A stretch of DNA of 64,000 nucleotides, from NCBI GenBank assembly GCA_964016885.1, contig OZ024742.1, positions 85,684,001-85,748,000 on the forward strand, in the 5' to 3' direction. This document shows positions 19,545 through 48,439 of this stretch, in pieces. The notes beneath the pieces were generated by a model that ran no database searches, was not told the origin of the DNA, and saw nothing but the letters and a program-made list of their open reading frames with translations. Numbering within the stretch: position 1 is the stretch's first letter; the number at the start of each line of letters is the position of its first letter. This stretch comes from Eledone cirrhosa (taxonomy: Eukaryota). The translations under genes were made by a program, and so were the position numbers.

Positions 19545-20102
19545 TCGGTAGAGCGTCGGACGCCATGCTTTCCAGCATAGTTATGTCCCTTTACGATCTG
19601 AGTTCAAATCCCGCAGAGGTTGACTTTGCCTTTCATCCTTACGGGGTCGATAAAATAAAGTACCAGTAATGCACTGGGTAATTGCTGGCCTTCTGCCTAA
19701 AAGTAGAAACAATTATTACTTATGGCATGGCGGTGTATTGGCAGTATCGGTAGAGGGTCGGACGCCATGATTTCCAGCATAGTTACGTTCCTTTACGATC
19801 TGAGTTCAAATCTCGCCGAGGTTGACTTTACCATTCATCCTTACGAGGTCGATAAAATAAAGTACCAGTAATGCACTGAGTAATTGCTGGCCTTGTGCCT
19901 AAAGTAGAAACAATTATTACTTATGGCAGTATCGGTAGAGGGTCGGACGCCATGATTTCCAGCATAGTTACGTCCCTTCATGATCTGAGTTCAAATCCCG
20001 CCGAGGTTGACTTTGCATTTCATCCTTACGGGGTCGATAAAATAAAGTACCAGTAATGCACTGTGTAATTGCTGGCCTTGTGCCTAAAGTAGAAACAATT
20101 AT
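19545..20102 (+). mobile_element. Three head-to-tail SINE copies
   Basis: Copies at ~19545-19718, 19727-19919 and 19924-20102. Confidence 0.92.
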
Positions 20103-45656: not shown

Positions 45657-45909
45657 CTAAGATGATGCATGACATACCCTGACGTAGTAGATGGTTAAGA
45701 TTCAGTCAGGGTAGTGAGTAAGATATGACAAAACTCAATATTTATATACTTTAAGATTGAGACATATATACCTTTGATTTATTCATTGAACCTTGTTTAA
45801 CCTTTATATATATATATATATATATATCTTTCACCGTATTTTTAACTAAAGAAATTTTAGCTTGATAACTGGGTTTAGAACCCTCACATAAATGGAAAAA
45901 GATGAGTAT

Positions 45910-45980
45910 TGACGTACATGGGAGTCGAACCCACATATGTGGTTATCGCGACCACTGTGCTACCATTACACCAACACATC
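45910..45980 (-). tRNA. tRNA-like sequence with atypical anticodon loop (nominal CGA), copy 1
   Basis: GATGTGT TG GTGT AATGGTA GCAC A GTGGT CGCGATA ACCAC ATAT GTGGG TTCGACT CCCAT GTACGTC A: 71 nt, all four stems pair (some G-U), A and B boxes present. Confidence 0.75.
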
Positions 45981-46168
45981 ACCCATCTCTTTCCATTCAA
46001 ATTAGAAACTACATTCTTAGCGAGTTTAAATGGCAAGTTAGTATGTTTTGAAACAGTGAGCGAGTTTGAAATTAGAAAATATATAGCTTTCACCATATTT
46101 TTAACTAAAGGAATTTTAGCTTGATAACGGGGTTTAGAACCCTCAGATAAATGGAAAAAGATGAGTAT

Positions 46169-46239
46169 TGACGTACATGGGAGTCGAACCCACATCTGTG
46201 GTTATCGCGACCACTGTGCTACCATTACACCAACACATC
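46169..46239 (-). tRNA. tRNA-like sequence, copy 2
   Basis: As copy 1 but variable loop AGAT; a third copy is truncated at the T-loop (46428-46448). Confidence 0.75.
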
Positions 46240-48439
46240 ACCCATCTCTTTCCATTCAAATTAGAAACTACATTCTTAGCGACTTTAAATGGCAAGTAAG
46301 TATGTTTTGAAACAGTGAGCGAGTTTGAAATTAGAAAATATATAGCTTTCACCGTATTTTTAACTAAAGGAATTTTAGCTTGATAACGGGGTTTAGAACC
46401 CTCAGATAAATGGAAAAAGATTAGTATTGACGTACATGGGAGTCGAACTCGCTCACTGTTTCAAAACATACTTACTTGCCAATATATATATATATATATA
46501 TATATAAATTACTTCTGCAGATCTAGAACTTTTCATTTGTAAGAAATCACGAAAAAATGTCACATAAGTTTGGTCATTTTCGATCATGTAAATTTCAACG
46601 CTTTGCACTAGCAAATAATTGCCCCTACACTCGTATTTTTGTAATGTGTGCTTATGTATAATTCTAACATAAAACAAATTGCTTATTGGATAGCCCGTGC
46701 GATGCAATAGTAACTGCATGCCTGCAAAGCTCTATTCCAACAAGCATCTCAATACAGATAGACGCACACAAGTGCATGCTAACATGAATCCGTGCACATA
46801 TTGTTGCATTCATACATTATCGATCGCACACATCCTTGTAATCACCTGAACTCACATAAAGATAAATGAACTGAAGAAGGAGTATGTTTTATATTGCTCT
46901 TCTCTCACATCATATATATATATGATCATGTTGATTCAGGAATTTCTACCCACATCCTCATGTAACAATATACATATATATATATACATACATAACAACA
47001 TATGAATACATGTGAGCAATCTTCAAAACATCATTGAGTTAAATAATATGTACTAAGTATAGCAGAATACGCGTTCCCACAGGTTTGCATGTACATATGC
47101 ATATGCATGCACACAAGTATTACTCCATGCAAGTATCAAGGTGTTATACATGCATGGGTTCATAGATATATAAACACATAAATAAGAATTGAAAATTCCA
47201 TACTAAACTTTTCATGATGTATTTTGACCGGTGATATAATGATCACAGGCATGAATACCTCCCACACACCATAGAGATAAAATCATGTAGGTATATACAA
47301 ATATGTATGCTTATGTGTGTCTTTGAGTGTATCTAAAAATATATGTTAGTATATATGTGTAATTACGTGCATCCCTCATAGCGCTCTTTTTTTACTATCA
47401 TGAATTTTATCATTGCCAAAAATCTCTTTATGAGATATAGAATACGTAATAATGCCTAGTCTCTCAAATTCGCTCTGGTGGAATTTCCCTTGAAAATCTG
47501 GTCTCAAGTAATATTAAATAAATCAATATCTCAACCTGTATGTACCGCATCTCTTAGATTAATATTGCAGAATAATAGACAGGAATTATAATTCTATATC
47601 AATAATACACAATCAAATATCTCAGTTGTAATTGACTTCCCTGGAGATGGGCACTTATGAAGAATATTAAAAGTAATGATATATAAAATTTACATATAAA
47701 TATGACGCTTTTGATTAATAATGTATATTTCACTTTCCTTCATCTCTCCACCATAGAAATCATATCGACATAAAGTTGATTTGCATCAGCTACTTTCTTG
47801 ATTTATAGATCTTTGTATCCCCACCCGCCTCAAAGAGTACTCTTGGTATAATAGGAAAAACGTATGATAAAAATCAGTTGGTAACAACACATTTTTAAGC
47901 TTTATTTTCGTATAGTTATTATTGCTATGATAAATATAGCACTGACATATGAGAAAAATATTATAAGAATACCAATTTCTAAATATTGATTTCTGATTTA
48001 GGCATAAGGAAAATAGTTTGAGGAAAGAAAAAATCCATAACATCCAGCCTACGGTCTGAATTGTAAAGTTTTCATAGCCGTGATATGAACTCAGAATAAA
48101 CATATAGAGTATAGCGCAATGTTAATTTAACCGACACTCTCCCAATTCAGCCAATCAACCATTCTACGTTTTCTAAGTATGAATATGATTATCGGCTCTT
48201 ACCATTTATCAATAATTAGATCATGTTAAACGTATAGCATACATGATCTCCGTACATTCTCTTTACTCAGAACATTAGTGGCGGAGTTCGCCAACTGTAA
48301 AAATAAAGCCAGGAACCGGGAATTAATATTTCAAAGACCTTCCCTTGTTCAGCTTCGGGTTAACGTTTTTTTTTCAATTCCGTTCACTGGATCCACTGGG
48401 TGACTTCCAGTTAGGATTCTGAACACCAGAGAGCAGTTT

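Follow-up and report, generated by a model that had tools for sequence, protein, structure and literature searches.

The window analysed here is a stretch of 64,000 nucleotides from Eledone cirrhosa (assembly GCA_964016885.1, contig OZ024742.1, forward-strand positions 85,684,001 to 85,748,000). It contains a short repetitive element with a tRNA-like cloverleaf at 45828..46481. The reading that we favour, with some reserve, is a hammerhead-free tandem element with a tRNA-Gln-like head, which is copied in trans by the machinery of Penelope-like elements (PLEs), and whose pre-tRNA-like RNA is methylated at A58, the methylation halting most of the copying. Tandem Repeats Finder (TRF) gave a 259-bp period at 45820-46448, with 2.4 copies and 97% matches. 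The whole insertion consists of a long arm of 2.4 tandem units (45828..46448, minus strand) and a short inverted arm (46450..46481, plus strand), and their junction shows microhomology at about 46443-46449. The target is (TA)n DNA, with a left flank at 45805..45827 and a right flank at 46482..46506. The tandem, the inverted segment, and the (TA)n flanks had been described in the original prediction, made from the letters of the window, and were confirmed by TRF and the sequence. The predicted likeness to the layout at 1551-2585 also held; there, the minus strand of a tandem/inverted element encodes a type I hammerhead of canonical form. The 3' end of the long arm (45828) is the inner of two PLE-type ends; the short arm terminates at the outer, or tail, end. 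An internal copy of the region with the two preferred 3' ends lies at 46031..46086 on the minus strand (inner, about 46071-46086; outer, 46031-46034). By comparison with the available part of one study (PMC11167929), these would be the reverse-transcription start sites of the family.

The tRNA module lies on the minus strand. Complete cloverleaves are found in unit 2 (46169..46239) and unit 1 (45910..45980), with Rfam tRNA scores of 44.3 and 42.8 bits, respectively; no other Rfam RNA reached its gathering score within the unit. A third cloverleaf is 5'-truncated and runs from the T loop to the discriminator (46428..46448). The long arm thus has its 5' end in the third T loop, a few bases beyond A58. 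In unit 2, the A box and D arm lie at 46222..46232, and the B box and T loop, with the GUUCRA motif, at 46180..46190. A58 (46184; 45925 in unit 1) is the putative site of N1-methyladenosine (m1A). The 5' ends of most other A58-bearing copies fall in the zone 46173..46184, which corresponds to tRNA positions 58-69, with the edge at 59. Unit positions (q) are counted along the tRNA strand from q1 (window 46345), such that the tRNA occupies q107-177 and A58 is q162. The cloverleaf, the boxes, the odd anticodon loop (C32-G33-CGA-U37-A38), and the T5 run were all in the original prediction, and all were recovered by the sequence, Rfam, and ARAGORN. The variable loop has 4 nt, and the T5 run (46155-46159) lies 9 nt past the discriminator. 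ARAGORN called both cloverleaves Ser(CGA). The D arm equals that of the host tRNA-Gln genes, which served as the comparison set, except for one base (52 pattern matches). Judged against these genes, the cloverleaf is tRNA-Gln-like in sequence. Some host tRNA-Gln genes (L379, L381, L383, and L385) have flanks that resemble the leader end and the trailer of the element in a different register. Within a tRNA-Gln cluster, ARAGORN also called a tRNA-Pyl(CTA) (L376, 994-1065), possibly a Gln variant with an amber anticodon.

The unit has 2240 candidates in its own genome (3.0 Gb), and the 40 scored are mostly 96-100% identical and spread over many contigs. It is a dispersed family, neither a single-locus repeat nor the head of an ordinary short interspersed element (SINE). 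At least six subfamilies were recognized: A (the window type), A' (older), B, C, D, and E (ancient). They were revealed by a pattern requiring changes at both 27 and 43 (166 matches). Subfamily B has a 290-bp unit. Subfamily C is about 88-92% identical and has 1766 candidates. Subfamily E has 15 candidates at about 70% identity, with tandem spacings of 260-275 bp and the family layout (L386-L397). The family is real, abundant, and long-lived. Subfamily B also forms a satellite of 290-bp units at about 19.44-19.535 Mb of one contig (G000:C28), where the four stretches sampled, 36 kb from about 94 kb, consist of it throughout.

The anticodon loop reads CGCGATA, CTGGATA, or CCGGCAA, depending on the subfamily. 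The combination of U33, purine 37, and a conserved anticodon that marks a functional tRNA gene is not kept. A functional tRNA gene was rejected on these grounds, and so was a functional Ser tRNA, given this variation of the loop among subfamilies.

The leader (46240..46256) is purine-rich and forms the 5' strand of a 17-bp extended stem; the trailer (46150..46166), with the T5 run inside it, forms the 3' strand. The predicted pairing of all 17 positions with two G-U pairs was borne out by the pair count (15 Watson-Crick and two G-U) and by the fold statistics. The 118-nt region folds with z=-4.5, and none of 200 shuffles was as good; the opposite strand gave z=-3.2. The leader/trailer duplex reaches -25.2 kcal/mol, compared with -2.6 to -9.8 kcal/mol for the flanks of host tRNA genes (21 distinct pairs). 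For the unmodified RNA, the cloverleaf (-39.1 kcal/mol) is not the lowest fold, since the minimum-energy fold has -43.7 kcal/mol. The pairing beat 99 of 100 shuffles in all 24 subfamily A copies, and in 5/16 C, 4/8 B, and 2/4 A' copies. The weaker result in the latter three arises since U-rich trailers of any sequence will pair with a purine-rich leader. The stem is conserved among copies. In subfamily C, both strands gain matching 2-nt extensions; in subfamily E, the stem appears continuous with the acceptor stem, lacking the 3-nt bulge (L386-L397).

Covariation was assessed in two sets. In 24 A-C copies, 91.8% of the cells pair, and 2/27 pairs are changed on both sides (122/500 shuffles as high). 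The second set had four A-D representatives and 9/12 E copies (three E copies have no tRNA part). In this set, 8/21 cloverleaf pairs are changed on both sides, in the acceptor and anticodon stems, with 32 two-sided cells; 0/500 shuffles were as high and slid controls gave at most 13, in counts that take related copies as independent and are hence inflated. These compensatory changes support a cloverleaf that may be held by selection. The predicted importance of the tRNA mimic as a structure is supported by them, and also by the A58-dependent stop described below.

Two hairpins follow the cloverleaf on the minus strand. Hairpin 2 (46104..46120) is conserved in subfamilies A, B, and C. Hairpin 1 (46130..46142) has a conserved stem and a loop that differs among subfamilies. 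A CTGA stretch here had been taken as a hammerhead-like remnant in the original prediction. This reading failed: the CTGA is CCGA in subfamily B and CAGA in C, and no exact hammerhead core was found on either strand of subfamilies A, B, and C by a descriptor that recovered one of three controls (the hammerhead of the window itself) and missed two variant cores. One-mismatch matches occurred only with stems of 2-5 bp. Several host PLEs (L077, L078, L086, L088, L093, and L094) have hammerhead-like motifs 3' of their frames, with U3/A8 replacing C3/G8 and a palindromic stem III. These might be candidate ribozymes.

Insertions were selected by the tail end plus TA (631 matches), which avoids selection for length, and 70 of the first listed were analysed, omitting two loci already known to be full-length. 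A head-to-head inversion is present in 43 of the 70 (61%), and nine have first arms longer than one unit. The second arms end at q4-18 in 36/43 inverted copies, and the first arms at q53. The spacing of the two 3' ends is 37-53 nt, given the TA microhomology. The same two-end pattern was found in subfamilies B (12/17) and C (23/42). The far flank contains (TA)3 in 64/70 insertions, compared with 188/1400 background windows; the near flank was a selection criterion. Target-site duplications are unreadable within (TA)n. In the available parts of the reports, PLE insertions are described with a 30-40 bp tail, a tandem/inverted layout, and a (TA)n bias (PMC8557442), and two internal reverse transcriptase start sites correspond to the PLE tail (PMC11167929). 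The anatomy of the family matches this pattern and is therefore a PLE signature. PLEs with a C-terminal GIY-YIG domain are also abundant in this genome (10,597 candidates, with frames up to 1096 aa). The predicted mobilisation as a non-autonomous element by PLE machinery is strongly supported by the 70 tail-selected copies and two further subfamilies, and the anatomy leaves little doubt about it.

The 5' ends of the arms showed a dependence on A58. In subfamilies A and A', 35/51 first arms that reach the T arm end at q162-173 (positions 58-69), and none end at q150-161. The edge is sharp at 59, since 0/16 passing arms end in the 12 nt 5' of A58. In subfamily B, 10/18 first arms end at positions 58-69 (30 loci, one without a first arm; two BLAST starts were re-read by eye and later confirmed). 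In subfamily C, where 46/47 copies have T58, only 2/38 first arms end there (Fisher p=3.6e-10 for A versus C, and 5.7e-5 for B versus C). The C set had 73 loci from 157 matches, with one duplicate removed and three long loci left out; this omission can only raise the C rate. An ungapped recount of all arms gave 56/84 for A/A', 15/31 for B, and 8/58 for C, with paired arms that are not independent and a divergence that inflates C. The junctions that extend furthest stop next to A58 on its 3' side, at position 59; five do so exactly, and microhomology leaves two others ambiguous between 58 and 59. Most junctions fall on the palindrome CATG or on TA-like bases directly 3' of the T loop. A genome-wide count of the CATG fold-back junction gave 791 matches, often two per insertion; among the first 100, 97 have the A58-lineage trailer and two have the C-type letter. 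Palindrome or TA microhomology alone was largely rejected as the cause of the pile-up, because subfamily C has the identical sequence there, with the same T stem and palindromes as A, and little pile-up. This A58-dependent truncation, with subfamily C as a natural control, is the new result of the analysis.

The motif around A58 suggests a cause. GUUCRA in a 7-nt loop on a 5-bp stem is present in A, A', B, and D, and absent in C. According to the available part of one report, TRMT6/61A methylates GUUCRA in 7-nt hairpin loops, also outside tRNAs, asking no more of its substrate than such a hairpin, and m1A truncates cDNA (10.1101/202747). TRMT6/61A is also reported, in a source available in part, to act on pre-tRNA precursors (10.64898/2026.05.17.725798), and the plus-strand strong stop of HIV is attributed to m1A58 in the accessible text of another (PMC9317671). 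Judged from the genomic truncation footprint alone, the position-59 stop is likely caused by m1A58 blocking the reverse transcriptase. The window copy, whose 5' end lies beyond A58, is outside this stop class.

The source of the RNA was addressed by 64 arms with an intact T arm from 49 loci among the matches listed. At -10 to +8, 16 of the 48 arms reaching the tRNA start come to an end, compared with 4/52 and 3/32 in the adjacent 18-nt intervals (p=0.002 and 0.016, for an interval picked post hoc). This edge would fit transcription by Pol III from near -10, cleavage by RNase P at +1, or a mixture of the two. The remaining 32/48 arms, two thirds of the total, extend further upstream, so some templates must be multimeric or circular. 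Eight stops further upstream, at -93 and -134, were discarded as artefacts of subfamily D differing from the ruler. Because of the T5 run (T6-T8 in subfamily C) and the broken B box of C, Pol III cannot be the sole RNA source. The predicted Pol III promoter is thus upheld in part, with moderate evidence from the 5' edge, and weakened by the T5-T8 runs and the B-box change. On balance, a contribution of Pol III to transcription of the family is slightly favoured.

The following steps are proposed for the favoured reading. First, tandem arrays would be transcribed, with a slight preference for a partial role of Pol III from the A and B boxes, starting about 10 nt before the tRNA. The T5 run would be leakily read through, and the longer read-through RNAs would also act as templates. 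Second, the RNA would fold into the cloverleaf, and TRMT6/61A would probably methylate A58 in the GUUCRA T loop. Third, as the anatomy indicates with high probability, the PLE protein would nick both strands of the (TA)n DNA, and two cDNAs would begin at internal sites 37-53 nt apart, giving unequal ends. Fourth, most cDNAs would halt at position 59, a pattern seen in the insertions for which methylation is the presumed cause. After trimming, the two cDNA ends would be linked through whichever palindrome lies closest (CATG, GTAC, or ACGT) or onto (TA)n, and the outcome would be head-to-head, tRNA-less dead copies. Fifth, on unmodified or longer RNA, the cDNA might pass A58 and restore the partial tandems by which the family persists. 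The window copy would belong to this run-through kind.

Several observations weigh against this reading. Read-through copies have no excess of mismatches at A58 (2/100, versus 2-3/100 at three neighbouring positions), so such copies must derive from unmodified RNA. Subfamilies C and A are of different age and also diverge at other positions, including T-loop position 59, and thus the C control is not a single-base test. Long arms selected for a full unit, including the window copy, cluster at q145-160, beyond A58. Subfamily C was amplified to its 1766 candidates although its B box is without A58 and its tRNA is followed by T6-T8 runs. As for the cloverleaf, the covariation counts are inflated, 0/9 single E copies score as a tRNA, and the two terminal acceptor pairs are unpaired in subfamily B. 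Moreover, no autonomous partner was found by blastn and a profile built on four natural copies, and the unit sequence is absent from 50 PLE loci among the 10,597 GIY-YIG candidates.

In a different reading, the tRNA mimic would replace the hammerhead: RNase P (or RNase Z) would free monomers, and the leader/trailer stem and ligation would make circles that template tandems. Covariation extends across the whole cloverleaf, beyond the promoter boxes, and the leader/trailer stem is conserved, with its matching 2-nt extensions in C. Three arms begin at -1, and both arms of one locus (L195) at -1/+1. A weak signal of 5/56 arms ends at q178-188, just past the RNase Z site. The arms exceeding one unit (9/70) and the lack of a detected hammerhead in A, B, and C point in the same direction. 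However, the 5' edge is diffuse (-10 to +8), with six arms reaching into the leader, and a transcription start fits equally well; the acceptor end is disrupted in B. RNase Z and RNase P sites were also rejected as the outer insertion ends. The real ends are at q4-18 and q53-60, which is 53-100 nt upstream of the next tRNA and off the tRNA boundaries. The predicted replacement of self-cleavage by RNase P/Z processing is conjectural. In the parts of the reports available, PLE insertion in vitro needs no hammerhead cleavage (PMC11167929), and Naiads thrive without a hammerhead (PMC8557442), so nothing needs replacing. Schistosome Sm-alpha also has a tRNA head plus a hammerhead, and this coexistence weakens the idea of a tRNA instead of a ribozyme. 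That RNase P/Z functionally replaces the hammerhead is therefore doubtful, and the circle model built on it is held with similarly low confidence. It is compatible with the m1A58 stop.

The position-59 stop might also have another cause in a family that is still PLE-mobilised, namely a nuclease cut in the T loop or the T54-A58 tertiary fold. The 18-nt 3' fragments of tRNAs are a precedent for such a cut. Both would equally need A58 and would leave no mismatch signature. A structural pause, however, is expected at the 3' base of the stem rather than within the loop. The edge is sharp at 59, with no passing arm ending within the next 12 nt, and subfamily C retains the T stem with little pile-up. 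RNA structure is reported to complicate truncation profiles, in the accessible part of the source (10.1101/202747). We regard a cut or fold as unlikely, and methylation of A58 as the better explanation of the stop.

It is less probable still that the tRNA is only a captured passenger or promoter, with copying from Pol II read-through of host introns and no role for the cloverleaf itself. The T5-T8 runs stand straight after the tRNA, A58 was lost in C, and the A58 stop costs the element. The trailer resembles the trailers or terminators of some host tRNA-Gln genes; this likeness is weak, and that the element may have captured a whole tRNA-Gln gene with its terminator is a faint hint. The passenger reading does not account for the anticodon and acceptor stems, which were rewritten with pairing retained, or for the 17-bp flank stem, which is not in ordinary tRNA genes. 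An ordinary tRNA-derived SINE moved by a long interspersed element, with the tandems and inversions arising later or by twin priming, would explain the tRNA head with A and B boxes and the soft 5' edge at the expected transcription start, but is highly improbable, as 3' ends of the element close both arms, at two fixed sites, the element lacks a poly(A) or simple tail of its own, 61% of the insertions are inverted, and the arms continue through the upstream unit.

The PLE-mobilised tandem element with a tRNA head can be compared with known systems. The mascRNA-type mimics also have a cloverleaf with an altered anticodon loop within a longer RNA, where it is a single-copy host end-processing signal; the family resembles them in this respect. 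The closest described element is schistosome Sm-alpha. In the available parts of the reports, Sm-alpha derives from tRNA-Gln (PMC2770079); it is arranged in tandem and transcribed by Pol III, and its promoter is followed by an active hammerhead (PMC6765202). The original prediction that no described family is like the present one was therefore too strong. The family shares with Schistosoma Sm-alpha/Sj-alpha the Pol III-type promoter, tandem repeats needed for propagation, and high copy number, and with Sm-alpha the tRNA-Gln head. It differs in that no hammerhead was found in subfamilies A, B, and C. Compared by description only, the accessible accounts of Sm-alpha mention no 17-bp leader/trailer stem, PLE-type ends, or A58-linked truncation.

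Animal non-LTR retrozymes are likewise short non-coding tandem units, dispersed and as satellites, and are proposed in the accessible texts to be non-autonomous PLE derivatives (PMC7229834; 10.64898/2026.07.22.740005). The neighbour at 1551-2585 is such a retrozyme. Unlike retrozymes, which are described there with a type I hammerhead in each unit, the family has a tRNA mimic. Without a detected hammerhead it falls outside the retrozyme definition, although it works like a retrozyme or a non-autonomous PLE. None of the 50 PLE loci showed a pseudo-long terminal repeat (pLTR) homologous to the unit. Chlamydomonas MRC1 and Naiads, as described in part of one report (PMC8557442), share partial tandems, an inverted 5' copy, a 30-40 bp tail at one end, microsatellite targets, and the lack of a canonical hammerhead. 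No tRNA module is described in that part for MRC1/Naiads, whereas the family has one. The non-autonomous PLEs of MRC1 type share 3' sequence with a known autonomous partner, in contrast to the null result in the 50 PLE loci here. As in the retroviral m1A58 strong stop, reverse transcription ends at an A58-bearing tRNA T loop (PMC9317671; 10.1101/202747, each available in part). Retroviruses require the stop, and their tRNA is a separate primer molecule; in the family the mimic lies within the template and the stop leads to truncated copies. In the titles and abstract openings covered (most subscription journals and Repbase being outside this coverage), neither a hammerhead-free tRNA-bearing PLE parasite nor an A58-linked truncation of a non-LTR element was described.

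Other repeats were also noticed. Relatives of the 1551-2585 element, with 74-87% identity, lie close to PLE frames in two loci (L064 and L085), either as pLTRs or as separate insertions. A second repeated tRNA-like sequence (L033 and L035-L043) scores 53-72 bits in Rfam and has a variable anticodon. The surrounding element measures about 1.8 kb, contains inverted repeats, and is flanked by TA. In this tRNA-like sequence, too, the leader pairs with the trailer (-10.7 and -12.5 kcal/mol). The window also has a SINE-like 185-bp unit in three tandem copies at 19545-20102, which is inserted in several other sampled loci as well.

In summary, the analyses suggest a family that connects SINEs, retrozymes, and Sm-alpha, in that a ribozyme-free, PLE-driven tandem bears a tRNA head. 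As a tentative and rather doubtful extension, ribozyme-free PLE parasites with pre-tRNA-disguised RNA might be widespread, using host Pol III, TRMT6/61A, and RNase P; the leader/trailer stem might circularise cut monomers instead of the hammerhead and RtcB, the thousands of truncated copies would be datable fossils of a tRNA modification, and subfamily C would be an A58-less escape variant. The insertions provide evidence, within the genome itself, on the RNA template of an element mobilised by PLE machinery; in vitro work on this step covers one PLE only. If the A58 stop is methylation, a genome assembly would suffice to read an RNA modification, and one subfamily would serve as an internal control. 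If true, the methylation stop would also show that the parasite RNA passes through the host tRNA pathway in the germ line. Finally, the family makes testable the question of whether the hammerhead of retrozymes is needed, lost, or replaced.

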